Made by a program: the position numbers and the translations under genes. From Eubacteriales bacterium (GTDB lineage: Bacteria > Bacillota > Clostridia > Oscillospirales > JAAYXM01), in assembly GCA_045539475.1 (NCBI GenBank), contig JAZQFJ010000045.1, positions 2,024-66,023 on the forward strand: a DNA stretch of 64,000 nucleotides, in the 5' to 3' direction. Of the stretch, positions 1-59,400 are shown one piece after another (positions within the stretch are counted from its first letter, which is position 1; every line of letters starts with the position of its first letter). Below the pieces are notes generated by a model that had not been told where the DNA came from, did not search any database, and was given only the letters and a program-made list of their open reading frames with translations.

Positions 1-3000
1 TGGACATTTCTTATTTCTGTTCCTTCGCTGCTTGTGTTGTAACGTCCGGTGTCATAACCGAAGCCGTCATCAACGCCCCAGAAATATCCCTCATTCGGAA
101 CGCCGCTGTCTCCTCCGGTTTCGTAATTTTCAAGCCAACCCTGAGTTATCTTATCGCCGTAAAACGGATCCACCGCATCTGCGGCATAAAGTTCGCTGTA
201 TGTTTCGTTATAAAGATTGCCCTTCGGGTCGCCGTAGCCGTACGGGTTGTCCTTCGCCCATTCAAACACCACATACTCGCCTTTTTCATTTCTCTCGCCG
301 CGTCCGCAGAGAATACCGTTTTCTTCTCTTGCAAGCGTGTAGTCAAACTCGCCATGTTCATCCAATCCAAGCTCATAGTATGCACCAAAGTCGTTTGACG
401 GGAACAGGCGCTTACAATCCGGGCACTGAATCTTCCACGGGCGGTTTATCGCATCTATCTTCCATGCGTATTTGCCGTACTTGTAGTTAAGGTCAACTCC
501 GCAGTAGAAGCAGCGCCAGACAAGCGGGTCTTTCGTTTCTACAAGATCGAATGCACGCGGCAGCGTATGCGCGGTTATCATATTATATATGTAATCATAA
601 TGCGGCAGATACTTATCCGCTTCTTCAACTGCCGCTTCTGCAGTATCCTTTGCCCAATCGTAAAGCTCAATGTTCTCACGTGCGGCTTTGATTTTCTTCT
701 CCGTATAATACGTCCGGTCAGTCTTTCCGTCACGCACGGAAATTATTATACTTTCGCTTCGTGAAACCCCATCAATTGTTACCGTTGCCTCGATTTCTGC
801 AACGCCGGTATCAACCGGAGTTACGAAGCCTTTTTCATCAACGGTAACTACGCTTTCATCCGACGATACATAGCTTAAGGCACCGTCCGGAACGGTAAGC
901 GCCGCTCCGTTGTTGTCGTATGCACAGACAGAAAGCTTTATTCCTTCACTGCTCTTCTTCAGAACCTGCGTTGCAGAGGTAAGCTCAAGGCTTGCAAAGC
1001 CTTCGCTGAGAACATTGAGCGGGATATAGTCTGAATAATAAGTGGCTCCTCCAAAGGTTACCTTTGCCCTTACCGTTGTAGAGGCAGCCTTCACGCCTGT
1101 TATCTTTTCTTCTGAACTTACCGCAATTTCCGTATCAGCAACCTCAAACTCAACAGAAATATCCTCTGCCTTGATTTCGCTTCCGTTTGTAAGATATGCT
1201 TTTACGACAGGAGAAACAGATCCTGAAACAAAGATGTCATACTGTGGTTCTGTAAATTCTATTCTGTCAAGCGTTTGCTCATTTACGGTAATCTCAATGC
1301 TTTTGCTTACCGCCTCGGCACCTTTTACATATGCCGTTGCCGTTATTGTTGCCGTTCCCGGTGCCACGGCAACAAGCTTTTCACCGGATATTTTTACGAT
1401 GCTGTCATCCGAGCTTTCAAGAGCAAGGTTATTTTCCGCATCCTTCACGGTTTCCTTATCTCCGTGCTTTGCGCCGAAGACATAGCTTCGTCCGCCTGCC
1501 ATAACCACACCCGGGGTAAGAGAGGTGCTTTCACCTGCCGCAATAGAAGCCTTTTCGGCGAAAAGCTCTATAGACTCTATTCCGCCAAGCCCCTCAACAT
1601 ATGAAAGCGAGAGGTATGCAGGAATCATATAAGCATAGCTTCCCTCAGGGCTTAAGCTCATTGCTCGCATCGTGAAGGTATGCACACCTTCTGTAAGATA
1701 CACGGTGTTAAGTGATTTGAGCGTATTGTAGTTTCTGTTTGTGGACATATCCGTCCAGAAGCAGAAATCACCCATAAACGCACCGTCCATATAGAGGTTT
1801 GCGTTGTTTGCACCTCGGTAGTACTGAGTTCCGAGGAAATCGAGCTCATACCATCCGTCATAATCTACCTGAATATCTATCGCAAGGTCTGCATTTTGCG
1901 TCTGTCCGACTTTCGTAATCTGAGCCTGCGTTCCCTGCGTGAAGCAGCGAAGCTTTGAATTTGCCGGTCCGGAGAGGATGTTTGCGCTCTCATCAAAGTT
2001 TACTTTCCAGCCGTATTGCTCTATCGTTACATTCGATGCAAAGCCGGTTCCGGGCTTTCTGAAATCAACAAGCTTGCTCTTCGGGGATTTCGGCTCTACC
2101 TTTACCGAAAACGGCTCGCTATTTATTGAGCTTCCGCCGCAAGTCACCGTTGCGATAACGTTTACCTTATCCTTTGCTGCAACACCGGTGATAACTCCGG
2201 TCTCAGCATTGATTGCGAGATACTGCTCATCCTCAGGATTTGCAAGTGCATAGGTCACCGTATATCTGTCGGCATTTGCAAGATCCGCCTCATTTCCGCT
2301 TTCATGCCATGCACGGACGGTAAGTGCCGTTGAGAAATCAACCTCAACGTTGTCTGCACCGATAATCGCTGCATATTCAAACGGAGTATCATCCGCAACG
2401 GCAATATGCAGCGTTCCCTTTATCTGCACACCGTCTGCCTCAACCCACACAGCAATATCTGCATTTCCCGGCCCACGGGCGGTAATGATACCGTCCTGCG
2501 AAACTGTTGCAACAGCGGTGTCGGAGCTTTCATACCAGTAAACAGAGCTTTCGCCGGTATACTCCTCTCCGTCATTGTAGAAAAGCTTATATTCCGATGT
2601 TGCGGTTTCCCCGCGGATAAACGCCGTCTTGTCAGCTGTTACCTCTGCACGGGAAAGAACCTTCTCAACTCCGCTGAATGTAACCAAAGCCGATGCCTCG
2701 CGCGTTACTCCGTTTATCGTAACCGTTGCGGTTATCTCTGCTTCTCCGTTTGATACAACGGATATAACGCCGGTTGTTTCGTCAACTGTCGCAACATTCT
2801 CATTCGATGAAGTATATTTAACCTCTTCACTGTCAAGCGCCGCGCCTATGGTTATGGGCGTTCCGGTATTTGAATAAAGAGTAAGCTTTGTTGAAAGTGT
2901 GTCGCCGTATTTCGGAGCATCAAGCTCACTTGTAAGTGAAAGCTCTGCACAGTCAAGCGCAACCTCGTGAACGGAAATATGGGACACAAATATATCCGCA

Positions 3001-4580
3001 CCCTTGCACTCTGCCGCGTTGAAGTCCATACGTGTTTCCAGACCGTAAACATCTGCATAGCCATAGTTTAAGTAAAGAGCTCCAACGTTAAATTTTGTCC
3101 AATCCTGATCGCCGGTCTTTCCTGCCCACTGGGAATCGGCGATGCTCTTTACCGTCACGCCACTTGAGGTAAGGTCATTGTAATAATAAGCTCTCATAAT
3201 TGCCGACGGCAGTGTGTTTGTGTTCTCGCTCTTTATGTAACCGCTGTATTCATAAAGCTTTCCCGCCTCTGCCTGCACAATGTTTCGCTGGTCGCTCGAG
3301 CTGTTTGCTTTGCGCTGATAGCTCTGAATTCTTATGTTGTTTGAGTTTCCCGTCGGAGCAAGCGAGAATTTCGCAATATTGGTTGTCTTGCCCGTTATCT
3401 CGGAAACAACGTCGCGCAGAAGCGTATATTCATAATTATACGTTGTAGCGTTCTTCGTTGCTTTCCAATACGAAAGCTTAGGATCAGTTATACCCGACCT
3501 ATCTGTAAGGTAAATGTCCCGTTCAAACTCACCGTGGAGTACATTCACCCATTTGTTACTTCCTTCCGGCTTTACTTGGCGTGAATTTAAGATATTTGCA
3601 CCGATTACGTTTACCTCGCACTCCGTCGATATTTCATTCTCGCCAAGGCTTGCTGTGACGGTGATTTTTGTTCTACCCGGTGCAAGCGGCTTGAGTATTC
3701 CGTTTTTATCTACCGTTGCGATATCTTCATCATCTGATTTATAAGAAAGCTCGATATCTTCCCCAAGCGTTTTTCCGTTATCATCAGTCACGGAAATCGG
3801 ATACGTGTTGCCTACACTGAGAATTTCCGCGCCGATATCAGCTATCATGCCGGCGGGAAGGCGCACAATCTCGTCCTCAGAAACCTGCTGTCCCTCCGGA
3901 ACGATTCTCATTCCGGAAAGATACATTTCCTGACGGTACGCGGCATTCAGAGAGTCATTTACTCCGGTCGCATCAGTGGCTACTGAACCATCCACCACAT
4001 TTATTACTTTAGAATTAAGTGTAACAGAATTTAATGTTGCTGCAAAAAGAATGCAGTAATCCCCCGTTTCAAGCTCTACTGCGATTTTTTCCCCATCGGC
4101 ACTTCCATCCACCGTAACCGGCGTGTATTCCCCTGCAGTTGCCGCAGAAAAGTTGAAATAGCCGAGAAGATTGTTGTCCGTTCCGATAATCGCATTGGTG
4201 TTTGTTGCACTGTCCATTGCTGAATTATATTTTGCAATCGCAATTGCGGGTGCAATTGATGTTTCTGTTGGATTGTCCGTTTTGAAGTAGACATTATATT
4301 TGCCCGGTGTTGCCACGCTTACCTTCAGCGCAACGAACTGGCGATGCCCTGTGTTTCCGCCGGCACTATACCTCCGCACCTGTATTCCTGTCCATGAGAG
4401 AGCGAACTTGGTAGCCTCAACAGATTCCGAAGCACTGCTGCCTGTGGTTTTTGCTATAATTTGGGATATTTCAAACTTCTGCTCAACTCCCTCTGCAAAT
4501 ACAGACATTGCAGGCATGAGCGACAGCATAATCGCAAAGCTGAGCAGTAATGATAACATTCTGTTCATTTTAGTTCTCAT
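1..4580 (-). CDS. Giant secreted multidomain protein, N-terminal ~1526 codons only (3' end lies beyond window start). Contains a signal peptide, an N-terminal module shared with the 542-aa neighbour, Ig-like repeats and the start of a heparinase II/III-like lyase region. Paralog of 47945..56395.
   Basis: Absent from the ORF track because it runs off the window. My minus-strand translation from ATG 4580 (RBS GGAAGGAG) begins MRTKMNRMLSLLLSFAIMLSLMPAMSVFAEG. The frame was stop-free where I spot-checked it (about 3000-3120, 1740-1800, 600-660, 1-20). Near 380-480 it encodes RPWKIQCPDCKRLFPSNDFGAYYELG, matching RPWKVQCPDCKRLFPSNDFGSFYKLG in the 2827-aa ORF. All track ORFs inside 1..4580 are short shadow frames. 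Confidence 0.8.
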   Translation of the reverse strand, partial: MRTKMNRMLSLLLSFAIMLSLMPAMSVFAEGVEQKFEISQIIAKTTGSSASESVEATKFALSWTGIQVRRYSAGGNTGHRQFVALKVSVATPGKYNVYFKTDNPTETSIAPAIAIAKYNSAMDSATNTNAIIGTDNNLLGYFNFSAATAGEYTPVTVDGSADGEKIAVELETGDYCILFAATLNSVTLNSKVINVVDGSVATDATGVNDSLNAAYRQEMYLSGMRIVPEGQQVSEDEIVRLPAGMIADIGAEILSVGNTYPISVTDDNGKTLGEDIELSYKSDDEDIATVDKNGILKPLAPGRTKITVTASLGENEISTECEVNVIGANILNSRQVKPEGSNKWVNVLHGEFERDIYLTDRSGITDPKLSYWKATKNATTYNYEYTLLRDVVSEITGKTTNIAKFSLAPTGNSNNIRIQSYQRKANSSSDQRNIVQAEAGKLYEYSGYIKSENTNTLPSAIMRAYYYNDLTSSGVTVKSIADSQWAGKTGDQDWTKFNVGALYLNYGYADVYGLETRMDFNAAECKGADIFVSHISVHEVALDCAELSLTSELDAPKYGDTLSTKLTLYSNTGTPITIGAALDSEEVKYTSSNENVATVDETTGVISVVSNGEAEITATVTINGVTREASALVTFSGVEKVLSRAEVTADKTAFIRGETATSEYKLFYNDGEEYTGESSVYWYESSDTAVATVSQDGIITARGPGNADIAVWVEADGVQIKGTLHIAVADDTPFEYAAIIGADNVEVDFSTALTVRAWHESGNEADLANADRYTVTYALANPEDEQYLAINAETGVITGVAAKDKVNVIATVTCGGSSINSEPFSVKVEPKSPKSKLVDFRKPGTGFASNVTIEQYGWKVNFDESANILSGPANSKLRCFTQGTQAQITKVGQTQNADLAIDIQVDYDGWYELDFLGTQYYRGANNANLYMDGAFMGDFCFWTDMSTNRNYNTLKSLNTVYLTEGVHTFTMRAMSLSPEGSYAYMIPAYLSLSYVEGLGGIESIELFAEKASIAAGESTSLTPGVVMAGGRSYVFGAKHGDKETVKDAENNLALESSDDSIVKISGEKLVAVAPGTATITATAYVKGAEAVSKSIEITVNEQTLDRIEFTEPQYDIFVSGSVSPVVKAYLTNGSEIKAEDISVEFEVADTEIAVSSEEKITGVKAASTTVRAKVTFGGATYYSDYIPLNVLSEGFASLELTSATQVLKKSSEGIKLSVCAYDNNGAALTVPDGALSYVSSDESVVTVDEKGFVTPVDTGVAEIEATVTIDGVSRSESIIISVRDGKTDRTYYTEKKIKAARENIELYDWAKDTAEAAVEEADKYLPHYDYIYNMITAHTLPRAFDLVETKDPLVWRCFYCGVDLNYKYGKYAWKIDAINRPWKIQCPDCKRLFPSNDFGAYYELGLDEHGEFDYTLAREENGILCGRGERNEKGEYVVFEWAKDNPYGYGDPKGNLYNETYSELYAADAVDPFYGDKITQGWLENYETGGDSGVPNEGYFWGVDDGFGYDTGRYNTSSEGTEIRNV
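3910..4500 (-). repeat. Copy 1 of a ~600-nt direct repeat (approximate ends) encoding the shared N-terminal module of the two tandem paralogs
   Basis: Long near-identical runs are visible by eye against 5617-6205, for example ggaaagatacatttcctg...cattcagagagtcatttactccggtcgcatcagtggctactgaaccatccaccacatttattactttagaattaagtgtaacagaatttaatgttgctgcaaaaagaatgcagta. Confidence 0.85.
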
Positions 4581-4645
4581 ACGCAATTCTCCTTCCTGGA
4601 TTATAAAAGGGAGGGTGAACACCGTCCATCCTCCCCTGGTGTGTG

Positions 4646-14560: not shown

Positions 14561-14652
14561 GGAGAAGTACTCAAGCTGGTCGAAGAGGCGCCCCTGCTAA
14601 GGGCGTAGGTCGCGAAAGCGGTGCGGGAGTTCGAATCTCCCCTTCTCCGCCA
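14561..14652 (+). tRNA. tRNA-Ser (anticodon GCU), CCA encoded
   Basis: Manual fold: acceptor GGAGAAG/CTTCTCC, anticodon stem CGCCC/GGGCG with loop CTGCTAA, long variable arm, T-arm GGGAG-TTCGAATC-CTCCC, then GCCA. Confidence 0.9.
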
Positions 14653-14657
14653 GAAAA

Positions 14658-14684
14658 AAGACATCCTTTAGGGTGTCTTTTTTC
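14658..14684 (+). terminator. Rho-independent terminator after tRNA-Ser
   Basis: aagacatcc-ttta-gggtgtctt followed by a T-run. Confidence 0.8.
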
Positions 14685-14823
14685 AGTTATATTTGCCTTA
14701 TGGCAAGTTATGAATTGACTTTGTCAACGCTTGTCTTATTAAAGGTAAATATATCATAACAGCAAACGAAGTTTGCTTCATAACTATAAACTCTAAACTT
14801 TCAACTTCCCTCTAAACCATTCA

Positions 14824-15356
14824 TCTCCGCCAGAAAAACCTCATCATTCTCTCATGAAAAAACGGCAAAAACCGGCGAAAATTTGGCAGAAACTTGGCAA
14901 CACAAAAAATAAATTCTGTGTTATAATTTATGGCAATGATGCTTTCGGAGTGAACATCTGTGAATTTGTGCGCGATTCATGAAGGATGCTCCGTGTGCGC
15001 AAAGCGTCAGGTTTGTATTGAAAAAACAATACAAATAAATTATAATAGAAAGGAAAACAACAATGTTAACACAAAATTTATTTAACAAAAAGCCAAAAAC
15101 TTTCATGGACTATGAGCCTGGTAAGTTGCCAAACAACAAAGATTGGGACACGCAGACGAAATCCGAAACCAAAAATTATGCCCCTTTTGCATCAAATGTG
15201 AAAATAGTCGGAAACAATGTAACAAAAAAGGACTACGATGATTTCTTTGAAGGGTTCAATGACCCGTACGGAGAAAAAAGAGAGCAAGAACAACAACGAA
15301 AAGAAAGGCTTGCTAACATTCGTGCAAACGCGGATAAGCAAAACCGGTATTCTCAG
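14824..15356 (+). repeat. Cassette repeat copy 1: tRNA-3'-end-like core, 239-nt leader and first 98 codons
   Basis: Near-identical to 17053..17586. Homology starts exactly at tctccgccagaaaaacc and ends after codon 98. Confidence 0.9.
14919..14927 (+). promoter_or_regulatory. Extended -10 promoter element (TGtTATAAT) in the cassette 1 leader
   Basis: ctgTGtTATAATtt. There is no good -35. Four phased GGC(A/G)(A/G)AA repeats sit upstream. Confidence 0.45.
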
Positions 15357-16208
15357 AGTGCATCCACTTTACAAACAGATGCGTTTGTTAAAGGATTTAA
15401 TAAAGAAAAAACAACCGGCATATTAAATCCACATCCTCCCTATGATACCGACCGTGCTTTTGGATTACTCGGTACAGAAGAGAGCGAATTAAAATCGACG
15501 CTGCAAAAACTCAACGCTTCTCCTGCGATAACAAATGCTATCAATCGCAATCCCAATGCCAAAAGCGAATACAAACCCATCGGCACACATGATCCGAATG
15601 AAGAACCTGTTATAACACAATTGTCAAATGATGAGAAAACTTCGGATTTTACTGAGGTATTAGGTAATACATTAAAAAGATCATTTTTTGAAGCTTTTGC
15701 TCCGGATTATTTAAAACCATCCAGACATACTGCACTATGGTTTGTCGGTGCTGAAACCTACTTGAAGCATAAAGGTTATGATACTTCTGCATGGTTACTA
15801 AAACACTCTTTGCAACCAAATCCCGAAGATGTTTATAGGGATGATAATTCAAGAATTGCACAGCTTATCAAAAATGATCCGGCGTTTGTGAAAGAACTCG
15901 ACATAGCAATTGCCAATAGCGATGGGAAAACATTGGATAAAACAATTTCTGTTTCATTTAAGCAGGGAGATTTATATTATTCCATACATAAAAACGATAT
16001 AAAACTAACCGGATATAAAGATGAAAATGGAAAATGGAAAATTTCCGCAAGGTTGTCTGATGAATATAATTTCTCGGAACTTACTTCATGGATGGATGGT
16101 GAAGATGCTACATTGGGTACATTGGCTAATGATGTAGCGTATTTTTCTGAAAAGATTGGTGCGATAACTCCATACAATATTTATGTCGATTTTAATATTG
16201 AAAGGTAG
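15063..16208 (+). CDS. Cassette 1 large protein (381 aa): conserved 98-aa N-terminus plus a unique C-terminal domain. Polymorphic-toxin-like architecture; function unknown.
   Basis: ORF track, RBS AAAGGA. No signal peptide or TM segment. The first 98 residues differ at 2 positions from 17293..18498; the remainder is unrelated. Confidence 0.6.
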   Translation: MLTQNLFNKKPKTFMDYEPGKLPNNKDWDTQTKSETKNYAPFASNVKIVGNNVTKKDYDDFFEGFNDPYGEKREQEQQRKERLANIRANADKQNRYSQSASTLQTDAFVKGFNKEKTTGILNPHPPYDTDRAFGLLGTEESELKSTLQKLNASPAITNAINRNPNAKSEYKPIGTHDPNEEPVITQLSNDEKTSDFTEVLGNTLKRSFFEAFAPDYLKPSRHTALWFVGAETYLKHKGYDTSAWLLKHSLQPNPEDVYRDDNSRIAQLIKNDPAFVKELDIAIANSDGKTLDKTISVSFKQGDLYYSIHKNDIKLTGYKDENGKWKISARLSDEYNFSELTSWMDGEDATLGTLANDVAYFSEKIGAITPYNIYVDFNIER

Positions 16209-16214
16209 AGTTTT

Positions 16215-16820
16215 ATGAAAAAAATCTTTTTGCTCGTTTTGACACTTTTACTTTTAACATCCTGTAGTAGCAGTGTGGAATTAAATCCCGAATGGTATCC
16301 TCACGGATGGGCAGGTAAAGATACTATTTTTGTCTCCCGACCAAATGGAAAATTCAGTATCGGGCAATATTCTAAAAGTCAAGCTCTCGCTGTAAACACC
16401 GATGACGAAAGGCATGACATCCTTCTTTCTTCAGTAACTGACCATAAACGAATCGAAGATAAAGTGTATGTATATTCCGATGAAGGATATTGCGTTATTG
16501 ATGAAACTGCCAACACCGCAGAAGTTTTGGTTATCGTGGAAGATCAGTATGCGTTATCGGGTACGGATGATCCTGCCGTCACATATCTAAAATCATTTGA
16601 CGATTTTTCAGACAAGGCAAAAAAGATTTTTACAGAGATGGGGCAATACTGGTCTGACAAAGAATATCGTAGATACGGTTCAAATGACAAAATATATCCT
16701 GACGGGACCATTGAATATTCGGATGGTGGTTTATATCAGATGGTAGTAATTTATGTTATACTTCAACTACTTGTTGCTACTGTCCTTGTAATTATTAGAT
16801 TGCGTGCGCGAAAAAAATAA
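16215..16820 (+). CDS. Lipoprotein with C-terminal TM anchor (201 aa). Candidate immunity or partner protein of cassette 1.
   Basis: Lipobox MKKIFLLVLTLLLLTSCSS and C-terminal hydrophobic VVIYVILQLLVATVLVIIRL. Starts 7 nt after the upstream stop. Confidence 0.6.
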   Translation: MKKIFLLVLTLLLLTSCSSSVELNPEWYPHGWAGKDTIFVSRPNGKFSIGQYSKSQALAVNTDDERHDILLSSVTDHKRIEDKVYVYSDEGYCVIDETANTAEVLVIVEDQYALSGTDDPAVTYLKSFDDFSDKAKKIFTEMGQYWSDKEYRRYGSNDKIYPDGTIEYSDGGLYQMVVIYVILQLLVATVLVIIRLRARKK

Positions 16821-16943
16821 TTTCTTTTGCGTTTCGCTTGTAATTTTATCCACCTACGGTTAATTTAGCAGTGAGTGGATTTTTTCTCTAAAGCTACTAT
16901 TTATACAACTTCAGAATATATTGTGCATATGGGTGGCAGAGCT

Positions 16944-16955
16944 CCTTCTCCGCCA
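16944..16955 (+). repeat. Copy of the tRNA-Ser 3' end (ccttctccgcca)
   Basis: A 12/12 match to 14641-14652, closing cassette 1. It sits within a ~36-nt stretch homologous to 18903-18938. Confidence 0.75.
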
Positions 16956-16987
16956 AAAACTGACAAGTTTCAACTTGTCAGTTTTTT
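16955..16987 (+). terminator. Rho-independent terminator directly after the tRNA-end copy
   Basis: ctgacaagt-ttca-acttgtcag followed by a T-run. Confidence 0.75.
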
Positions 16988-17052
16988 ACTTTTCACTATT
17001 CTCTTTTATCTATTCTCTCTTCACAAAAAGTGTATTTACATAAAACTTAAGT

Positions 17053-17586
17053 TCTCCGCCAGAAAAACCTCATCATTCTCTCATGAAAAAACGGCAAAAA
17101 GTTGGCGGAATTTTGGCAGAAACTTGGCAACACAAAAAATAAATTCTGTGTTATAATTTATGGCAATGATGCTTTTGGAGTGAACGTCTGTGAATTTGTG
17201 CGCGATTCATGAAGGATGCTCCGTGTGCGCAAAGTATCAGGTTTGTATTGAAAAAACAATACAAATAAATTATAATAGAAAGGTAAACAACAATGTTAAC
17301 ACAAAATTTATTTAACAAAAAGCCAAAAACTTTTATGGACTATGAGCCTGGTAAGTTGCCAAGCAACAAAGATTGGGACACGCAGACGAAATCCGAAACC
17401 AAAAATTATGCCCCTTTTGCATCAAATGTGAAAATAGTCGGAGACAATGTAACAAAAAAGGACTACGATGATTTCTTTGAAGGGTTCAATGACCCGTACG
17501 GAGAAAAAAGAGAGCAAGAACAGCAACGAAAAGAAAGGCTTGCTAACATTCGTGCAAACGCTGATAAGCAAAACCGGTATTCTCAA
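17053..17586 (+). repeat. Cassette repeat copy 2
   Basis: See 14824..15356. ttctccgccagaaaaa at 17052-17067 matches the tRNA end plus flank for 16 nt. Confidence 0.9.
17149..17157 (+). promoter_or_regulatory. Extended -10 promoter element in the cassette 2 leader
   Basis: Same TGtTATAAT as in cassette 1. Confidence 0.45.
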
Positions 17587-18498
17587 AATAACTCATTTCT
17601 CGAAGGTTTCAATTCTGCTGGAATTACGAAAAAAAGCAGAAAAGGAAACGGCATGTTTCAAAAAACAAAACCGGAGATTACAAAACTTCCCTTTAACCCA
17701 TCACAAGAAGTGAAAATTGAGAAAATGCCAGGCGGTCCAAATAAACCATTATCCTTTATTCAATATGTAAATGGAGAAACAAATGACCCGTGGGGGTCTT
17801 CTCTCGGTGGTGATTTGAAGTCCAACGAAGACAAGGCTCTTTTTCTTGAAGGTTTTGCGGGAGAGTCTAAACAACCACAAAACAAAACCCAAGATAAAGA
17901 TGCCATAGAGTTTGGAGTAGATTCCGAAACCTATAAAATTCTTCAGGATCTCAGTAAACGATGGTATGCAACTTCTGATTCTGCAGAAAAAGACAGACTG
18001 CACGAGGTAGCAGAGAAAGTAAGGATGTATCATCGTCAAGGAACTCCAATTTTTGATAAGCACGATGCGATAATGAATCTTTTGCACGAAAATAAAAAAA
18101 GGGCTCAAGATTATCAGAAAACGATGACAGAAGGTTTTCCAGGCTTTCTTTATCGAATGTCTGACGGAAACTATATGTTAGATTCCTCAACATATCTTAT
18201 CGGAATGGTCGATGAAGGTGAATGGGACTACAAGTACAATAAAGATTGGCAAGTGCCACACGATCACTTCGATGGCAAATATATGGATACCCCCGGAAGT
18301 AATTATAGAAATTGGTTGCCATGGATGTATTTTGATGGTCGATTGATTTCAGCTGATAAACTTGGCAATATGAATATGGCGTATGTTGGCAAAAATATGG
18401 GATTACCCGAGTGGGTGTACAAAAACATTACTACCACAGATAAAGATGATGCGGAGTGGGTTCAGTACGGCATTGACCTTGCAAATTCAGGGAGGTAA
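17293..18498 (+). CDS. Cassette 2 large protein (401 aa): the same 98-aa N-terminus with a different C-terminal domain (possibly toxin-44-like)
   Basis: ORF track. The C-terminal stretch GEWDYKYN...ADKLGNMNMAYVGKNMGLPEW recalls, from memory, the WDYK / GNxxYG pattern of polymorphic toxin type 44 domains. This is unverified. Confidence 0.6.
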   Translation: MLTQNLFNKKPKTFMDYEPGKLPSNKDWDTQTKSETKNYAPFASNVKIVGDNVTKKDYDDFFEGFNDPYGEKREQEQQRKERLANIRANADKQNRYSQNNSFLEGFNSAGITKKSRKGNGMFQKTKPEITKLPFNPSQEVKIEKMPGGPNKPLSFIQYVNGETNDPWGSSLGGDLKSNEDKALFLEGFAGESKQPQNKTQDKDAIEFGVDSETYKILQDLSKRWYATSDSAEKDRLHEVAEKVRMYHRQGTPIFDKHDAIMNLLHENKKRAQDYQKTMTEGFPGFLYRMSDGNYMLDSSTYLIGMVDEGEWDYKYNKDWQVPHDHFDGKYMDTPGSNYRNWLPWMYFDGRLISADKLGNMNMAYVGKNMGLPEWVYKNITTTDKDDAEWVQYGIDLANSGR

Positions 18499-18502
18499 AC
18501 TC

Positions 18503-18823
18503 ATGAAGAAACATTTTCTCGTTAATACATTGTTTTCTCTTGCTTTCATTATTTTCGACCCATTTTTAATCTGGTGCAGTGATTTAGCTGATGTGTATAG
18601 CTTGGGCGCAGAAATGGTTTTAGGAATGTTAATACCTTTTGTTTTCTTCCTTTTTATTCTCTTTGCCATTTTCTCTGTATCACTTTCTTTGTACAAAGCC
18701 ATTGCTACGAAAGACATAAAGCAAACTATACCAACTTTGGTGCTCATTGCATTTGTAACACTGTATATTACTTTGTCAACACAAGACAGTCTATGGGTTC
18801 GTGTCATTGAATATTGTAAATAA
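18503..18823 (+). CDS. Small 3-TM membrane protein (106 aa). Candidate immunity or partner protein of cassette 2.
   Basis: GGAGG RBS then ATG 18503 (MKKHFLVNTLFSLAFIIF...), 4 nt after the upstream stop. The ORF track shows a longer in-frame version starting at 18383. Confidence 0.6.
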   Translation: MKKHFLVNTLFSLAFIIFDPFLIWCSDLADVYSLGAEMVLGMLIPFVFFLFILFAIFSVSLSLYKAIATKDIKQTIPTLVLIAFVTLYITLSTQDSLWVRVIEYCK

Positions 18824-18926
18824 TGCGACGCAAAGTAAAAACAACATACCTAACCACCTCACAAAATCAATAATGAGATGAAATCCCAAAATAGAACAAG
18901 GCATTGTACACACTCGTGGCAACGCT

Positions 18927-18938
18927 CCTTCTCCGCCA
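18927..18938 (+). repeat. Copy of the tRNA-Ser 3' end (ccttctccgcca)
   Basis: A 12/12 match, closing cassette 2. Confidence 0.75.
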
Positions 18939-18940
18939 AC

Positions 18941-18982
18941 AAAAAAGTCACTTTTGTCTATCAAGACAAAGGTGACTTTTTT
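18941..18982 (+). terminator. Rho-independent terminator after the distal tRNA-end copy
   Basis: aaaagtcacttttgtct-atca-agacaaaggtgactttt followed by a T-run. Confidence 0.75.
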
Positions 18983-47944: not shown

Positions 47945-50900
47945 CTACGCGATATAGTCGAGAATTCTCTTGATGAGAACTGCAACCTCTGCACGGGTGG
48001 TGTTAGCAAGCGGGTCAATAAGACCGTTCTTACCGTTGACAAGCTCTGCCTTGACAAGCGCAGAAACCGCTTCCTTTGCATAATCTGCAACTTCATTGAA
48101 ATCAGCCGCCTGAGGCTCATCTTCCGCTGCGGTGATTTTCTCCATCGAATACAGTGCACGATAAACTATAACCATCATATCCTGACGGGTTATTGTGTTT
48201 CTCGGTGCGTATTTATTGTCACCGATGCCGTTTACAATACCTGCATTGCGTGCTATTGCAAGCTCTGATGCGAAGTAGTCATTTTCATTTACGTCTGCAA
48301 AGTTTTCGGTATTGTCCGATGCGAGCTTGAATGCACGGACAAGCAGGAGCGCGAAGTCTGCGCGCGTTATATTCGCGGATGGACTAAACGTACTTGCAGA
48401 CGTGCCCTTTATTATTCCATCCTCTGCAAGATAGTTTATCGCGCTCTCTGCCCATGCGTGATTAGAAAGGTCTGTGAAACGGATAGTATCCGTTTCACCC
48501 GACGCGTCGGGTGCGGTGTTCGCATCATCTGCAGTTTCGCCGTTTTCTGTGCCATCGGGGGCTTCCTGCTTATCGGTAGGTGCGGCATCTCCGCCACCAC
48601 CGCCGCCTCCGCCACCGCCGGACGGTGTGGTGGTATCATCGGTGCTTCCGGAATTGTCGGTTGACTGGTTATCATCTGCCGATGGCTTACTTGTCGTCGA
48701 ACCGTAGACCGTTACCGTAAAGTGAACAGTTGTTTCCGTAATCCCGTCAGTCACGGTTATTGCAAAGTGATTGTCGCCAACCTGCGAGCTATCCGGTTTC
48801 CATGTGACGGTCATATCATTTGCGCTTACGGTTGCTCCTCGCGGAAGCGATGTTCCAACAGCCCAAATTGCTCTTCCCGCAGGGCTGTATGCGCTTATCG
48901 GAATTGATATAGAGCTTCCTGCCGAGGTTGTATAGTTCTTGGGTTGAACAACATTCGGTGCACTGTCATAAATGCTTGAAACCGGAATTCTGAGCGTTTG
49001 CCCCTCATCAATATTATAAACATATCCGCGAGCTGTGTTATTTACGTCAACATAGCTTCTGATTAGGGAAACATCACCTATATTAAGCTTAATATTTCCG
49101 TCTTCGACAGATGCAGACTCGATTCTGTATGCGCCGTTCCGGACTCCGTCGTTCTCGACATATACAAACTTACCTGCGAGAGCCTCATTAGCAGCCTTCG
49201 TATCGTTAAGAGCAATCTCATTATCGGGCTTGTAAACGATATAGTTCTCCTTTGAAAGATCTTCTGTGAAGCTCTGAACCTTTCCTGTGTATGCCGCGAT
49301 TGCTTCTTCGGTTTCAGTATCACCAACGAGTTTTAAAACCTCACCGTCGTTGAGATATGAGTGGATGATTTTTCCTTCCTTATCAAAAGAAATTACACCT
49401 GCAAAGCCACGGAAGTTTATTTTATCCTCTATAACATAATCAACCGAATTATTGGTTGAATACATTATATAATCAACTCTTCCGTTCTTAAGAGTTACCT
49501 TGACTGCACTGTAAGCGTCAAGAACACCCGGCTTTGAATCTTCCTCACGGACCATCGGAACCTTTTCAATTTTTTCAATATACTTATTCGTTACATCATA
49601 CGGTTCAAAAACGGTCGTGAATACCGTGTCAAGATTTGTTCCGCGATTTCTGACAAGCATATATTCAAGGTTTCCTGCATGAGCGTTGCTCTTATTCTGC
49701 GGAGGCAGCGCCTTTGCAAAGGATACTTCAGAAACAGGACTGTCATTCAGCATCGTGACTCTCAGGCGGACATCACGTTTCTTATCCATAACCTTTTTCC
49801 AGTCCTTGACATTGAACTCAACAGTGAAATCCTTTTCAACAGAGTTATAGGTACGTACATCACGAAGCCATGTATATCCTTTCGGGTAAACTTCAGAACC
49901 GGCACCACCCGGGTCCGGACCGTATTTTACATCGGGACCTGCATATGTACCGTAAAGGTTTCCTTTATCATCCGTATACATCGGTGTCGCTTCCATATCT
50001 CCAAGACCGGAAATAGCCGTATGCTCATCGGACTGGCTGTGGAAGCTGTAGAGATGGTCGTCGCCGCCCTTGATATGGAAGAAGTCAACACCATAAGAAA
50101 TTTCATCATCGACATCAACCATAACTACCGATCTTCTGTATTCCTCAGTATTGCTGTACACATCGGCGCTTATATCCATAAGCTTGACGCGTCCGGAATC
50201 ATCGAAGTGTATCGGAGTCTGAGTAGCCTTAATTGTCTCCTGCTCATTCTCATCAACGACAACCGTGTTGTGAGAAATCGTTGTGCTTACCCACTGAACG
50301 CGGTTCGGCTGCTGACCAGTTTGCTCCGGATATCCGATATCGGGAGCGATATTGAGACCATATGCATCTGCAAAGAGGTTCAATGTATCGCGGTGACCGT
50401 GCATATCATTTTTTCCGAAATAGATTGCAAAGTCGCGATGCGTGTTGTTATAGCTTGATGTGCTTGCGGAGTCATGTTCTCCGCCGGCGCGAAGCGCGGC
50501 AAAACCGTAGCCTGCAAGCATATCACTGGGAAGAGCAAGCTTTCCTTCCGTTTCAATTACCTCTTCAATATCCTTTGTAAGCTGCTCGGGATCGTCATCA
50601 AGGATACTGCCGCGAAGCTCGATTCCACGCGTCTCATGCAAGAAGTAAAGCGCCTGAGCAAGAATCGGCTGCTTCGTGTTCTTATATGCCAGAAGAATAT
50701 CATCCTCTACAACTGCAAGACCCGTTCCTCCGATTGCACCGAAGTCGCCTGTGTGCGAGGTGTAGTAACCGCCGAGAAGCAGACGGATCTGAGCCGCAAA
50801 CATCTTTGTAAACTTCGGGTTTTCATAAAGGTCAGCCTGCGGATAAAGCTCAAATCCACGCAAAAGCTCTGCAACGCCCTGGAAGTGCGTAATCAATTCG

Positions 50901-53900
50901 CGGTTATATCCCGGAGAATTTTCCTTTCCGTTTCCGTCGCGGTCAATATCACCGATAAGTGACCCCATAAACATGCCACCGGCAGCAGGAATAGTTCTCG
51001 GAATCTTACCTGTGTTTATACCGGAAGTTCCAGCAACCGGACCCGGAGCGAATATCCAATCAATCATCTCGATTGATTCAGGTGCTCTGTTGAGAGAAAC
51101 CGCTGCAGCTGCAACAGATTTCTGGTGCATACCGAAGTTACCCCAGTTTTTGCCGTATTTTGTTCGTTCGAATATTTTAAGAATAAGGTTTTCTTCGACA
51201 TTCTTTCTTACTGCGCCGGGGCTGTCTTTAAGGTTAACCGGAATAAGCTCTCCACTTTCATCCTTAACCCAGTTGCCAAATTCATCCTTTTCATATTGCG
51301 GCGCTCTCTCGGAGAGATATTCAATTACCGCAGGGTCATTGTAAATCGGCTTAAACGCATCGTATGCCATTGCAAAATCATAGGTCATAAATGTGGACCA
51401 GACAGGGTCAACGATTGTACCATAGTAATCGTCGCCGCGCCAGGTATGCCACTGGAACCAGTCATAGCCGGGGAAGAAGTCGGCAACTCTGTCGAGAAGA
51501 ATTGCGCCCGCTCTTCCGTATTTCGCTTCACCCGTGTACACAAAAGCCGTGGCAAGAGAATTTATTGCCTTTCTGATTATCTCATCTCCTGCATACCACA
51601 AGCCGTTGTGGATGAAGTATCCAATATAGGTATACTGTACCGGACCTTTATATGCTCCGTCTGTATACCACGCATAACCTTCGTTATCATAGTAGCGTGG
51701 GTCATATCCCGGAACCTTTGTTACGTCTCCGCCCTCGCCGACAATTTCTTTTGCCTTTTCAATCGAAATATAGGGCATTTTATATCCGAAGCCGTCGTCA
51801 ACACCCCATCCCGCGATACCGAGCTTCGTGTCAAGCTCAGGATAAAGATCGTTTGTGAGATATCCACCCTTGACATTATATCCGTAGTGGTCCTTCCACT
51901 CCTGGCTTTCGCGAGCCTCGTTCCAGGCATCAAGCTCTGCTGTCCACTCTGCCGTTCCGGGTGTCTTTGTTGTATAGCTCGGGAATTTGCCGATGTGCGA
52001 ACACTCATTTCCCGCCTTTACATCCTCACAGACAAACTTTTCATGATGCTTCTGAAGTGCTCTGTCAATTGAGAATGTTCCATCGTCTGCAAGACCAAGC
52101 TTATAGAAGGAGCCAAAGTCGTTTGACGGGAACAGACGCTTACAATCCGGACACTGAACCTTCCACGGTCTGTTTATAGGATCTGTATCAAATACCGCAT
52201 TGTATTTCGTTCCGATATCCGCTCCGCAGTAACGGCAGAAGTTCTGCAACGGGTCGTACTTATGGCCGATATGGTAAAAACGCGGCAGACCTTCGGACAC
52301 GACAAGCTCATACAGCAAATCAAGCTTTTCAACGTATTTCTCTGCTTCTGACTTAACAGCCTTTACCTCATCGCGAGCCCATGAATATCGCTGTGCGTTT
52401 TTCTTTGCGTTTTCGCGCTCCTCTAATGTGTATATCGTCGGGTCAACGGTTGCATCCCAAGTAACCTGGAGCGCAAGCGGCTTAATTACAATTCCTTCTG
52501 CCGCACCGTTTTTATAATCCGCGCTGACAGTTGCGGATATTACCGCAGTACCAACGCCGATACCGTAGACACTTCCGTCTTCTGAAAGCTCAACATATTC
52601 GGAGCCTTCAACGAGTTCCCATGTAATGAACTCGCCAGGAACTGTGAGTATATTTCCGCTGTTCATACGCGCGCTTACACCAAGCTTTGACCCTCCGTAA
52701 ACGTAAATAGACTCAGGAGCGGTAATCTTGATTCCGTTTTCAGCGATACCTGAATTGTCGGAAACCGAAACAGTAAATTCGGCTTTCTTCGTTATGCCGT
52801 CATATGTTACTGTTGCGGTTATTTTTGCTTTACCTTCGCTGATACCGGTGATTGCACCGTTTTCATCAACCGTTGCAATATCGGGATTTTCAGATTTGTA
52901 TACGACAGCTGTAATATCGCCGTCTGCATATCCGATATCCTCACCCTTGACGGTTTTGAGCTTAAGCGTGGTGTTTACCGTTTCACCAAGACCTAAAACA
53001 TCGCTTCCGCTCTCCGTCACAATTTCTGCACTGCCTAAAGCGTTTTCGTCTGCAAACGTAAACGAATTCATATAAGCGGCATCACCGCCTGCCTTTGCTT
53101 CTCCGCTTTCGCTTACACGATAGACAACAAGATGCTCGCCTTCTGTAATTTCCTTTATGCCAAAGGGCTTTACGCAGCCGTCATTGTCTTCAACCTCAGA
53201 ATAGAAATCCGCCGTTCCGACATAATATTCACTTGTCGGTACTGCATATTTGAGGATGTTGTTTTCAAACTCCTCTGTTGCAGGCATAACGTAAAGGTCG
53301 AGCGCCGCATTTCTCCAACGGCTTCTGAACATATCGCCTTCTGCAAGATATGTGCTGGTTTTAGGGAACTTAACCTTAAATGCAACGTATGAATTATAGA
53401 GATTTGTTCCCTGCCAGACTATCTGTGCAGATGTTTTCGGACCGTTAAGCAGTATATCGGGATATCTCGGATCAATGTTTTCCACACTGTGGAATATCCA
53501 CGGGCGGAAATCCGTATATGATTTAATATCATTTACCCTGCTGTAGTTATCGGCGGGGTATGCACCCTGATTAAAGTTAATTGCAACAACGGATGAGGGT
53601 GGCACGTCTTCGCTGAAAACAACAATTTTTTCGGGTACACTCTCAATGATATTTCCGCGAATGTTGATTTTCGCCTTTACTTCAAAGGTTCCGGCCTTCG
53701 CCGCGCGGACACCATCTTCTGTCAGAGTTGCAACACCGTCTTCAGACTGATTCTGAATCTCAAGGCTTTCGATTGTTCCGCCGGGCAGAACCTTTCTGTT
53801 TACAAGCTCATAACCGGTTGTGAAGAGAAGCTCTTCGCCAAGCATAATCCTGTTGTTTGTGTAAAGATACGTTTTTGCTATTTTGTAATCATTATCAACG

Positions 53901-56395: not shown

Positions 56396-56466
56396 TTTTT
56401 CCTCCTTGTGGAAATGTGTAAGGGGCAAGCAAGCCTCCCTCCGTGTGTGAAGGGAGGCTTGTTTTT

Positions 56467-59400
56467 TTAGTCGCTGTATACTACTTTGTATTCACTGCCA
56501 TCCTGATAAATCATATATCCGCGTGCTGCTGTCTGCGTGCTGTTTGCAGGCTTTGCGGTAAACTGACCGTGGCCGGTAGTTCCGCCCTTTTCCTGTGAAA
56601 CTGCCTTATATTCGCAGCTGTCAACCGTTCCGCCTTCGCTGCCACCAAAGAGTATACCGACTTCGACAATTGTCTTTCCGCCTGCATCGTATTCTATCAT
56701 GTATGCATTTGTGCCGGTTGAGTCTGTCTTGACCGCCTTGTCAAGCACAACAAGCGGCTGTGCCGTGCCTTCAACATAAGTAATTTTTTCTACGTTGTCC
56801 CATACATAATATTCGTATGTTGTGCCGAAGCCTACGCGTACATCGTCACGATACCAGACAACAGAATCCTTATCATTGTAGGTTCTTGTAATCTTTGTGT
56901 CGTATTTGAGATCTTCTACACCGTCAACGGTAAATCTGTCGCCTGTGTCTTCGAACACCGCAACTGCACGGGTAACCGGTGCTGTAAGAACTGTTTCGGA
57001 AAGTTTTGTATCCTTTGCCGTGAACCAGTCAAGGAACTTAAATCCCGTAAGGCTCGGTGCGGCAGGAGCCTCTACTTTATCGTCAACAACATTGACAGTT
57101 GTAATATATTCGCGGTTTCCGTTGAAGAACTCAACTATCTTTGCATCCTCTTCTACATTCGGTGTGTAAACCGCTGTAAGGTAAGTGTTTGTGATAAGCT
57201 TATAGGTAAAGCTTGGCTCTGTTGAAACAAGCTCACCTTGTTCTTCCGTTCCGCGTACCCAACGGCGGAAGGTATAACCTTCTATCTCCGGAGCTTCGAT
57301 TTCAACCTCGTCGCCGCGTCTGTACTGACTACCCTCAACCGTAATTTCCTTGTTGACATTGTCTGTAAGCGCAAGGGAAACATACTGATTTTCTACGTCT
57401 TCGCTGAGCGCCGACACCCAATCAAGCTCAAGGCTCTCTAACATTGCAAAAGCTTTGCCCTCGGAATCGTTACCGTTTCCTAACTCGGATATGAGGACGA
57501 TAACGTAATATTCATCATCAGAAAGCTTAATGGGGTTTCCAGATTTCTTCTCGTCCGAGGTGCTCATATCTGCAGAAACAACGAGCTTTACACCGGCGGT
57601 GTCAGCAGCAATATCCGCCAAGTTTGTACCATTCGCCATTGACCATCTTGCATTGGCATACGCAGCAGGTACGATGTATGTGTTTACGATTGAATTGTTG
57701 GTTCTTGCATCCCAAGTCACAGCCGGTGTGTATATGCCGGGGTTTTCAACGGGAATTTTCAGAACATATCCGCCGTTTCCGATATATGTGCCATTAACTC
57801 TGAAATTCAATCCGTAATCAGTCACACTGCCTGTCTCGATGTTCGTTTTGCACATATATCTCCACGGAGCGGAAACTGCTGAATCAATATTTGTATATCT
57901 CATAAGCTCTAATAATGTTCCGTCGGTGGCTTGCTTTGTGAATACATACTTTACATCTCTTGAAACGGTTATATCAATAGTGCTTGTAAATTCAACACCG
58001 CATGAGGATGCCGTTACCTGAATGGTTGCTGTGCCTTCTTCAACGCCGGTGACAACACCGCTGTTATCTACTGTTGCAACGGAAGGGGCAAGGCTCTTAT
58101 ATGTAACACTGCTTGTAGGAGCAGTATTTCCTGCCTCATTCTTAAGAGCCACAGAAACAGTTGCCGTCTCGCGGACTTTTACGGTATCCTTAGAAGCTGT
58201 GAGAGCAACCGCGGACTGAGGTGTGAGAGTAAGACCTTTTGTTTTGAAATAAGCATTTGACACGTGAGTTGATACCCCATTTCCTTCAAAAAGGCTTATA
58301 AGAACATAATATTCTCCCGAACCGAGATACACATCGCCGTATTCACCTGTTATATTCGCAGTGCTTCCACTACTTACCCAACCGTTCTGGGAAGCGACAA
58401 GCTTTACCCCCTCGTCACCGAACACCTCTGCAAGATTTAAGTTTGTATCGCTCATTGTCCATTTGCTGTCCGCATAGGAAACAGGAACAAAGTAAATATT
58501 CAATTTTCCGTACTGAGAATACGTCGTGTAAACCATAGACGGCGTATATGTTCCCGAATTTTCAACCTTTGCCTTTAAGATAAACGCGTTATTTCCGAGA
58601 TTGCCCTTTGCAGCACGGAAGGTTGCACCACCATCTGCATCAGGATACATTGTATATCCGTCCATTCTGTGACAGAAACCCGAGTACATCCATGCACCTG
58701 TTGAAATGCTGCTGTCAAGCTGAGTATAATCTTTCATAAATCTCATATCCTGACTGGCAACACCAGCCTTTACTGCCTCTGCAACAAAAGAATATACAAC
58801 AGGTGCAGCTTCAACTGCATCCTCAGATGTGAGAGTAAGCTTTGTAAGCATACCCCAGATGTTGCTGGCATCTTCCGTTCCGGGGGACGGGTCAGTAGTG
58901 CTGTCGCTTGCAACTACAAACATATAATAATCTCCGGCAAAGAGATATACATTTTCTGCAAGCTCATCATCAGCCCCCGTTGCATTGTAACATGCATCGT
59001 AAGAAGCGATATGCTTTACAGAAGCTGCAGGATCATTCATTGACGATACTGCTATTGCTGCCTGAATGCCGCCGATTGTCGCTACATTCCAGCCCTTTGC
59101 TGTCACAACATCCTTGCTTACAAGATATATATCAGTCCACTCATTGTTGTAATAGTTTTTATAGCCCGAAACCGACGCAGTATATGATCCGGATGCCGGA
59201 ACATTTATGGTAAATACCACTGCATTGTTATTAGGAGTTATCCCGGCGCGAGCGGTCTTGAAGTAGAGACCGTTATCCTGGAATGGGGCATTGTCTACGT
59301 TTATCAGGCGCTCAAACTTCCAGTAGTTTGACTTTTCTTCGTTAACGGTATAATTGTTGACATCTGAGTATTTTACAGTATCCGTGCCGTGAGGCGTACC

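Follow-up and report, generated by a model that had tools for sequence, protein, structure and literature searches.

The window analyzed here is a stretch of 64,000 nucleotides (nt) of contig JAZQFJ010000045.1 (assembly GCA_045539475.1), which belongs to a clostridial metagenome-assembled genome (MAG). Between 15 and 19 kb, it contains two consecutive gene pairs, each encoding a leaderless protein followed by a small membrane-associated protein, that probably represent tandem cassettes of a polymorphic toxin system, antibacterial in function and specific to one lineage. The host genome is a draft of 2.98 Mb in 105 contigs and is 97.4% complete. All four open reading frames (ORFs) named in the original prediction were recovered, with gaps of 6 nt and 4 nt between toxin and partner in the first and second pairs, respectively.

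15063-16208, + strand: toxin 1 ORF (P0001), 381 amino acids (aa)
16215-16820, + strand: immunity candidate 1 ORF (P0003), 201 aa
17293-18498, + strand: toxin 2 ORF (P0002), 401 aa
18503-18823, + strand: immunity candidate 2 ORF (P0004), 106 aa

Residues 1 to 98 of the 381-aa and 401-aa proteins differ only by the substitutions N24S and N51D (BLASTP and codon-by-codon comparison), with four synonymous and two nonsynonymous differences among the corresponding codons. Identity collapses sharply at codon 99, beyond which the two genes are unrelated. The duplication extends further than was first noted: about 535 nt, comprising the leader and codons 1 to 98, are duplicated at the DNA level (14824-15358 versus 17053-17588) with 96 to 97% identity, and the 239 or 240 nt upstream of the start codons are identical at 230 of 240 positions. 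The host genome contains exactly two copies of this N terminus. Both starts, 15063 and 17293, are preceded by good Shine-Dalgarno sequences. The possibility of a start farther upstream, and with it of a signal peptide, was considered and rejected, as these are the first possible starts after in-frame stops.

C-terminal domains and their partner genes

The exchangeable portions of the two proteins and the products of the genes that follow them are as follows.

15648-16208, + strand: toxin 1 residues 196-381, predicted colicin-M-like alpha+beta domain with D333-x-Y335-N336 (pLDDT >90; Foldseek; VIA; family conservation)
17893-18498, + strand: toxin 2 residues 201-401, all-alpha Ntox44-superfamily domain (pLDDT >90; hhalign; motifs WDYK, GNMNMAYVG, and DKDD...GID)
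16215-16820, + strand: immunity candidate 1, predicted lipoprotein with an extracytoplasmic domain and a C-terminal transmembrane (TM) anchor (hydropathy; homolog synteny)
18503-18823, + strand: immunity candidate 2, predicted integral membrane protein with 3 to 4 TM segments (hydropathy; homolog synteny)

The C-terminal domain of toxin 1, which the original prediction had been unable to place, resembles colicin M (ColM) by fold. The AlphaFold model is confident over residues 195 to 381 (predicted local distance difference test [pLDDT] values of >90), and the 14 highest-ranking Foldseek matches are all members of the colicin M family (PaeM, syringacin M, colicin M, and pectocins M1 and M2), the best being PaeM with an E value of 1.6e-4 and a probability of 1.0. 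VIA, which is independent of Foldseek, returned pectocin M1 (Z score of 8.0), BtpeA-CTD (7.6), PaeM (6.6), syringacin M (6.5), and ColM (6.2) as its top five matches, with alignments spanning toxin 1 residues ~194 to 381; the lower ranks held only generic coiled-coil matches to the N-terminal helix. BtpeA is a type VI secretion system effector of Bacteroides fragilis. An exhaustive phmmer search with residues 190 to 381 found 439 relatives at E values of <=1e-3, in which the domain is always located at the C-terminal end, including in Rhs-repeat proteins of 624 to 2096 aa and in proteins with PG_binding_1 domains. No Pfam family covers the domain. D333 is conserved in 61 of 61 family members, and Y335 and an aspartate at position 336 are each conserved in 55 of the 61; the motif lies 48 residues from the C terminus, and that of ColM starts 45 residues before its own. 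The D-x-Y-D of the toxin 1 family resembles the start of DxYDx5HR, the catalytic motif of ColM (PMC5821083). On the strength of the modeled fold, toxin 1 may work like a ColM-type lipid II phosphodiesterase, although it is not filed as a member of the Pfam family Colicin_M (PF14859).

For toxin 2, the earlier guess of a toxin-44-like C terminus proved right at the superfamily level. Alignment by hhalign of the toxin 2 family with 19 bona fide Ntox44 domains from other Clostridia gave a match of 97.3% (E value of 2.4e-11) over 128 columns, with three motif pairs in register (WDYK with WDIK, GNMNMAYVG with GNIxYGYxG, and D..D..GID with D..D..GI). Ntox44 was originally defined as an all-alpha domain with the signatures DxK, GNxxxG, and DxxxD (PMC3482391). 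Toxin 2 shares these three signature motifs and the all-alpha content, and its relatives, like those of Ntox44, are fused to RHS repeats and PG_binding_1 domains; 19 of the 43 relatives have subthreshold matches to the Pfam Ntox44 model (PF15607), the best with an E value of 7e-4. By profile comparison, the toxin 2 C terminus is a divergent Ntox44 domain, differing from the Pfam family in its length of ~200 aa and in an extra N-terminal helical half that falls outside the 104-position model. In canonical Ntox44 loci from other Clostridia (L036 to L055), a simple hydropathy scan found a gene encoding a membrane-anchored or 4- to 5-TM protein directly downstream in 19 of 20 cases. Such membrane protein partners point to action at the envelope and not on nucleic acids, which by analogy suggests that Ntox44 toxins act at the cell envelope.

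The 201-aa partner of toxin 1 has a lipobox (LTSC, with the lipidated residue at Cys17), a C-terminal TM segment at residues ~175 to 197, and a basic tail, in agreement with its earlier description as a lipoprotein with a C-terminal TM segment, and its acidic domain of ~155 residues is therefore predicted to be extracytoplasmic. The 106-aa partner of toxin 2 contains hydrophobic stretches at residues 4 to 25, 31 to 69, and 74 to 94 and is almost entirely membrane embedded. It had been described as a 3-TM protein; its membrane location stands, and the count by hydropathy is three or four because the stretch at 31 to 69 is long enough for two spans. The immunity proteins of ColM are membrane-anchored periplasmic proteins or proteins with 3 to 4 TM segments (PMC5821083).

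Homologs of both partner genes accompany their own toxin domain in related genomes, including under different N termini. Lipoprotein homologs were found in 7 of the 32 genomes of the family and lie 6 to 10 nt 3' of a ColM-like domain in three of them (G020, G027, and G026); the toxin in G027 belongs to a different N-terminal class (YYYDFGTG). Homologs of the 106-aa protein are encoded directly after those toxin-2-type domains that are most similar to the one in the window (L003 and G007), and toxin-2-type domains with <=67% identity have other partners, such as a signal-anchored beta-propeller protein. The partners of other sister toxins include an ankyrin-repeat protein and a different lipoprotein. 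Orphan immunity genes and displaced toxin-tip remnants were present in five relatives (G003, G008, G019, G023, and G007): in G003 and G008, an orphan lipoprotein gene lies beside short or stop-ridden remnants of the ColM-like domain, and in G019 and G023, an orphan homolog of the 106-aa protein gene lies next to C-terminal toxin remnants of 37 to 45 residues. The original prediction had proposed looking for orphan modules of this kind elsewhere in the genome; those found are in relatives, and the host genome yielded no orphan of either type. By analogy, the co-variation of partners together with the orphan remnants is the signature of displacement of C termini and immunity genes in polymorphic toxin systems. 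A predicted complex of the toxin 1 domain and the lipoprotein ectodomain scored 0.00, which counts neither way.

Frameshifted or truncated relatives of the toxins, in which leaders and partner genes persist, were seen at L012 (6001-7124), L060 (896-2074), G018:C39:56195-56469, and G016:C4:31833-32051. Broken toxins with persisting leaders and partners point to ongoing decay and turnover of cassettes.

The N-terminal module and the conserved 5' module

The constant N-terminal part occupies about half of each toxin.

15063-15647, + strand: toxin 1 residues 1-195, leaderless disordered module (AlphaFold2 pLDDT mostly <50; motif counts; no Pfam or NCBIfam match)
17293-17892, + strand: toxin 2 residues 1-200, same disordered module (AlphaFold2 pLDDT <50 over most of residues 1-200)

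Both AlphaFold models predict disorder up to residue ~195 or ~200, with the exception of a helix at residues ~68 to 108 containing a charged EKREQEQQRKERLANIRANAD stretch. Neither protein contains a hydrophobic segment (maximum Kyte-Doolittle 19-mer values of 0.58 and 0.08), which agrees with the original prediction that the N terminus has no signal peptide or TM segment. The claim that it is not an LXG, WXG, or Rhs-type domain was likewise borne out, as it is disordered, the host genome contains no LXG or Rhs domains, and Pfam and NCBIfam searches with the N terminus and with both partners returned only subthreshold noise. The conserved features are short motifs, [FY]xD[YF]xxGK near the start and F[FL][ED]GF repeated one to three times, the last copy often immediately preceding the folded domain. 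In toxin 1, these correspond to FMDYEPGK (residues 14 to 21), FFEGF (61), and FVKGF (108), and in toxin 2 to FFEGF (61), FLEGF (102), and FLEGF (184). The recurrence of FFEGFN-type motifs, which had been noted from the two proteins, extends to the relatives: F[FLVIM]xG[FL] occurs 83 times in 64 of them, compared with 0.76 times in shuffled sequences, a count that is inflated by relatedness, and it is always located ahead of the toxin domain. Motifs of the F[FL][ED]GF type are also found in otherwise dissimilar N termini, and a second N-terminal class on the same toxin domains reads YYYDFGTGK at the aromatic-x-D-aromatic-x-x-G-K motif. Since its motifs are conserved, the N terminus is likely to be recognized by something.

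A third leaderless class of N termini, with the pattern ...NENYW...LDKxxKKxYNGINT...FLSG[FL]..., was observed in six proteins on other contigs (P0038, P0053, P0056, P0057, P0066, and P0083). It bears both ColM-like and Ntox44-like tips, and its sequence suggests a further related trafficking module.

A word-indexed search with residues 1 to 100 found 29 proteins of 223 to 408 aa; longer fused forms of the N terminus were sought separately, and none was found, which is weak evidence. At least eight unrelated C-terminal types, four of which have Pfam names, occur behind the shared N terminus among these 29 relatives: the two types of the window, an SLT_2 lytic transglycosylase, Peptidase_C39_2/C70, Ntox37, a large type with the pattern HYGRN...CHQFT...DEDxGTYNY, and two more. 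The catalog of C termini that the original prediction called for thus shows that the N terminus is not tied to a single type. The module is present in 14 of the 18 genomes of the host genus and, within the same family, in a single genome from another genus, with 0 to 8 copies per genome across species of one genus, several of them broken. None of 375 genomes representing 29 further families of the order contained it. The records of the relatives are MAGs of uncultured Eubacteriales from animal guts, one of them labeled Oscillospiraceae, and the host genus is probably a member of the latter family; the metagenomes that contain DNA of the locus are from goat, cattle, and sheep gut. No description of the module was found in the literature.

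Each toxin gene is preceded by a set of candidate regulatory elements, referred to here as the 5' module.

14883-14927, + strand: putative promoter P1 of cassette 1, TTGGCA repeated directly with an 11-nt phase and an extended -10 element (TGTTATAAT, 14919-14927), conserved in 13 toxin loci
17113-17157, + strand: copy of putative promoter P1, cassette 2
14932-15016, + strand: candidate structured leader element of ~85 nt, cassette 1 (alignment, RNAalifold, covariance model R1)
17162-17246, + strand: candidate structured leader element, cassette 2 (R1 match, E value of 4.5e-25)
15018-15046, + strand: putative promoter P2 of cassette 1, TTGAAA-17-TATAAT, just 5' of the Shine-Dalgarno sequence (best promoter score, 11/12)
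17248-17276, + strand: putative promoter P2, cassette 2 (promoter scan)

Sequence conservation reaches ~200 nt back from the start codon and was seen in 13 toxin loci, which occupy different genomic positions (both window cassettes and L003, L004, L006 to L008, L010, L012, L014, L015, L017, and L018). The order is the same throughout, with phased TTGGCA repeats, an extended -10 element (TGnTATAAT), the ~85-nt element, the P2 promoter, and the Shine-Dalgarno sequence. Within P2, the TTG of the -35 element and the TAnAAT of the -10 element are invariant at a fixed spacing, and the spacer sequence varies. An AT-rich palindrome at 15012-15035 was considered as a hairpin or operator and rejected, since its symmetry is lost in distant loci and what persists there are the -35 and -10 hexamers that it overlaps.

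The ~85-nt element is predicted to form three nested helices, with a U-rich tract at its end. In the alignment, 92% of cells pair, compared with 31 to 47% in slid controls, and helix 1 is 100% paired; compensatory changes are few, and the single-sequence folding energy is unexceptional (z = -0.69). Of the 32 genomes of the family, 14 contain copies matched by covariance model R1 (28 in total). All of these genomes belong to the two genera that carry the toxins, and in the host genome the model matches the two window leaders only. Where coordinates were compared (~15 matches), the element lies ~45 to 50 nt upstream of a toxin ORF, including those of the second N-terminal class. No Rfam family was found for it. 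The element may be a small RNA ending before P2 or an attenuating leader. One leader copy, at G025:C41:6877-6962 (L059), was observed without a toxin ORF; a 158-aa membrane-anchored protein encoded ~450 nt downstream is possibly the product of an orphan immunity gene left after toxin loss.

Cassette boundaries and genomic setting

The cassettes lie downstream of a serine tRNA gene, the 3' end of which recurs around them.

14561-14652, + strand: tRNA-Ser(GCT), 3' end CTTCTCCGCCA recurring around the cassettes (ARAGORN; Rfam tRNA, 52.8 bits)
14653-14684, + strand: predicted intrinsic terminator directly 3' of the tRNA (terminator scan)
14823-14848, + strand: tRNA-Ser 3'-end copy (TCTCCGCCAGAAAAAC...), left edge of cassette 1 (repeat family D2/D6; read in sequence)
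16945-16955, 17052-17077, and 18929-18940, + strand: further tRNA 3'-end copies
16955-16986, + strand: predicted terminator of cassette 1, abutting a tRNA 3'-end copy on its 3' side (terminator scan)
18941-18982, + strand: predicted terminator of cassette 2, abutting a tRNA 3'-end copy on its 3' side (terminator scan)

The last 11 to 12 nt of the tRNA are present in five copies (14641-14652, 14823-14833, 16945-16955, 17052-17062, and 18929-18940), and a strong terminator immediately follows the tRNA itself and the copies at 16945 and 18929. The five copies may bracket the cassettes in the manner of att sites left by successive integrations. Together, repeats and terminators delimit a cassette as a bounded unit consisting of a tRNA-end copy, the 5' module, the toxin gene, the immunity gene, a second tRNA-end copy, and a terminator. 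The region from 15 to 19 kb is an AT-rich island, with 36 to 37% GC compared with ~45% in its surroundings. No integrase or recombinase ORF was found within 13.6 to 19.1 kb of the window, and collections of phages and plasmids contained no match.

The locus running from PrmA through tRNA-Ser to an SNF transporter varies between species. In L003, it holds only an Ntox44-like cassette, in L008 an SLT_2 toxin with another lipoprotein, and in L012 a frameshifted copy of the same. In other members of the family, the gene pair is inserted between housekeeping genes that are unrelated from one case to the next, and no neighbor is common to them. Metagenome contigs add weak evidence for variant junctions, which are represented by single contigs of >=90% likeness, with one short side of only 28 nt, and are possibly derived from related species. 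In one, 14812 is connected to 19049, as expected of an empty site; in another, 15098 is connected to 17401 within the duplicated N termini, which leaves a single cassette; a third (17051 to 18929) would have lost cassette 2 between two tRNA-end copies; and the last (18926 to 14641) is rearranged.

Elsewhere, the window encodes three giant surface proteins on the - strand: one of >1540 aa at 3-4622, the frame of which runs off the end of the window, one of 2827 aa at 47945-56428, and one of 1049 aa at 56467-59616. The three contain Big_2 and Ig-like domains and hyaluronate-lyase and heparinase-like parts, and the 2827-aa protein has SLH domains. Their domain content suggests an S-layer-anchored glycosaminoglycan-degrading apparatus in a gut organism.

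Proposed mechanism, alternatives, and relation to known systems

The interpretation of these genes as toxin and immunity cassettes, already put forward in the original prediction, is supported by the finding of at least eight C termini, private co-varying partners, orphans in relatives, and Rhs-tip homologs of both domains. The architecture, the fold and profile relationships, the co-variation of partners, the orphan remnants, and the distribution within one lineage were each observed; toxicity, substrates, immunity by binding, and a role of the N terminus in export or delivery are what we infer. Each cassette would be a self-contained unit in which a 5' module (promoters and structured leader) is followed by the toxin gene, its immunity gene, and a terminator, and each toxin would combine a leaderless disordered trafficking module of ~100 to 200 aa with an exchangeable C-terminal killing domain. 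Toxin 1 would cleave lipid II or a related undecaprenyl-linked precursor at the outer face of the membrane, and toxin 2, judging by the membrane-bound partners, would also act at the envelope. The lipoprotein and the small multi-TM protein would serve as cognate immunity proteins, shielding the producing cell and its relatives at the surface of the membrane. Recombination downstream of the constant part (5' leader and N-terminal region) would exchange old units of C terminus plus immunity gene for new ones, and whole cassettes would have accumulated between the copies of the tRNA-Ser 3' end.

Known routes of export were sought in the draft host genome. Markers of the type VIIb secretion system (T7SSb), namely, WXG100, YukC/EssB, and YukD, were absent from it; its only FtsK-type ATPase lies in an 835-aa frame, and no LXG or Rhs domain occurs anywhere in it. 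A contractile or phage sheath and a C39 peptidase exporter were not found in this genome, and the flagellar export gate FlhA is absent from the whole genus. The toxins may follow a lineage-specific export or delivery route outside these known types, which is the preferred explanation, or they may be released by lysis, which is its main rival.

Several points weigh against the proposed mechanism. The analysis is wholly computational and the organisms are uncultured, and proteins that are meant to act outside the cell are leaderless in a genome with no recognizable exporter, which leaves a gap; since the genome is a draft in 105 contigs, a secretion apparatus could also be unassembled. Conservation and position are the only grounds on which a trafficking role is proposed for the N terminus. 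For toxin 1, the fold scores are moderate (Z scores of up to 8), though two aligners agree. In comparison with the colicin M family, it lacks sequence-level matches, as neither P0001 nor 60 of its relatives matched PF14859 at E values of <=1 and a profile search of PDB sequences with the toxin 1 family gave no match. The HR of the ColM motif is absent from the toxin 1 family, and codon 336 of the 381-aa protein (16068-16070) encodes Asn, as in 6 of 61 relatives, in place of the second Asp found elsewhere, so that toxin 1 could be attenuated or could use another substrate. For toxin 2, the Pfam match of P0002 to Ntox44 is subthreshold (E value of 0.12; 13.2 bits versus a gathering threshold of 24). 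Foldseek and VIA found no convincing structural match to its model beyond generic helical matches with Z scores of up to 6.5, a profile search of PDB sequences with its family found nothing, and we know of no activity for Ntox44.

A colicin-like bacteriocin would have the same toxins and immunity proteins with no dedicated export; it would be released by lysis (through autolysis, phage, or mother-cell lysis), and its disordered N terminus would act on the target, in receptor binding or in passage through the S-layer or wall, like the unstructured translocation domains of colicins. The failure to find a secretion machine of any known type in the genome fits such a bacteriocin, as do the short linear motifs in a disordered N terminus, the regulated-looking 5' module belonging to each cassette, and the likeness of toxin 1 to ColM, which has an N-terminal translocation segment and a membrane-anchored immunity protein (PMC5821083). 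We nevertheless regard it as rather unlikely, as none of the cassettes examined contains or adjoins a lysis gene, and a conserved uptake module is less obviously needed because envelope toxins in a monoderm require no import. The same N terminus is also carried by domains whose partner is an ankyrin-repeat protein, and this partner is presumably cytoplasmic (from Pfam Ank matches alone).

The leaderless toxins, the tight coupling of two genes with gaps of 4 to 6 nt, and the island-like AT-rich setting beside a tRNA would also fit an intracellular toxin-antitoxin or abortive infection system, in which phage or stress would activate the toxin and the membrane protein would be the antitoxin or sensor. 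This is made highly improbable by domains that are typical of secreted polymorphic toxins (Rhs tips and PG-binding fusions), by the wall-acting lytic transglycosylase and cysteine peptidase domains of sister cassettes, and by the location of the partner's soluble domain outside the membrane; orphan immunity genes and displaced toxin tips are typical of interbacterial systems, and nothing similar was found in phage or plasmid collections. The original prediction had left the role open among competition, defense, and abortive infection, and the last two have become less likely because the soluble or exposed parts of the partners are extracytoplasmic. Least credible by far is that the proteins are ordinary wall-remodeling enzymes, such as autolysins or sporulation hydrolases, with small membrane regulators. 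SLT_2 or C39/C70 peptidase domains do occur on some sister proteins and one relative adjoins spoIID, but species of a single genus differ in cassette content and in copy number (0 to 8), there are pseudogenes and remnants, 29 further families of the order lack the cassettes, C termini are swapped at one locus, and Rhs-tip homologs exist.

Taken as a polymorphic toxin system in the sense of Zhang et al. (2012; PMC3482391), the cassettes share with the LXG/T7SSb toxins of Gram-positive bacteria, including TelC-TipC (Whitney et al. 2017; PMC5555719), a constant N-terminal part, exchangeable C-terminal toxins, and a downstream immunity gene. They also share with them orphan immunity genes, toxin remnants, and toxin domains that are found in Rhs proteins. 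A further parallel to TelC-TipC is that lipid II, approached from the outside, is probably the target of at least one of the toxins, with a membrane-anchored extracytoplasmic protein providing protection. They differ from LXG/T7SSb systems in lacking an LXG or WXG domain, in a host genome from which T7SSb genes are missing, in an N-terminal part of ~100 to 200 aa with predicted disorder and short motifs in place of a helical LXG bundle, in the small size of the proteins (about 290 to 430 aa), and in the confinement of the module to two genera of one family. The ABP systems (AbpT/AbpP/AbpI; PMC13460014) are likewise Gram-positive, T7SS-independent polymorphic toxins with a new N-terminal domain; their Sec signals, folded BetaH domain, co-secreted serine protease, and cytoplasmic immunity proteins have no counterpart here, and the two cassettes contain neither a Sec signal (by hydropathy) nor a protease gene.

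The colicin M family (ColM, PaeM, syringacin M, and the pectocins; PF14859; PMC5821083) has its fold in common with the toxin 1 domain according to two independent aligners and likewise combines an unstructured N terminus with a membrane-anchored immunity partner. The host of toxin 1, unlike those of the colicins, is a monoderm member of the Clostridia, and therefore no import through TonB and FhuA applies. ColM-like or ColM-fold tips have also been described in polymorphic toxins, where they occur with lipobox or cystatin-like N termini and are paired with BamE-like membrane-anchored immunity proteins (Burroughs and Aravind, bioRxiv 10.1101/2025.01.14.632903); these are set beside toxin 1 by description only.

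The interbacterial toxins described so far in gut Firmicutes belong mostly to T7SS/LXG and Sec-dependent systems. What is new in the present cassettes is the N-terminal module, the absence of a known exporter, and a conserved leader RNA of their own; the toxin tips and the polymorphic logic are known or recognizable. The N-terminal module might tentatively be viewed as the recognition signal of an undescribed export or cell-to-cell delivery pathway in gut Clostridia that lack a T7SS, with the 85-nt RNA and the tandem promoters forming a dedicated regulator of toxin deployment (a small RNA or attenuator), a combined proposal that we put forward as possible rather than probable. The question of how such toxins leave one cell and enter another becomes concrete in these cassettes, in which one leaderless module with short, mutable motifs is found with no known exporter. 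The fold of toxin 1 provides a functional lead for a widespread toxin tip with 439 relatives and no Pfam family, the membrane protein partners give circumstantial support to the action of Ntox44 at the envelope, and the leader is a toxin-specific candidate structured RNA outside Rfam. For an uncultured genus of Clostridia in the ruminant gut, the cassettes indicate a diversifying arsenal of predicted envelope-attacking toxins, including colicin-M-like, Ntox44-like, lytic transglycosylase, and cysteine peptidase types.

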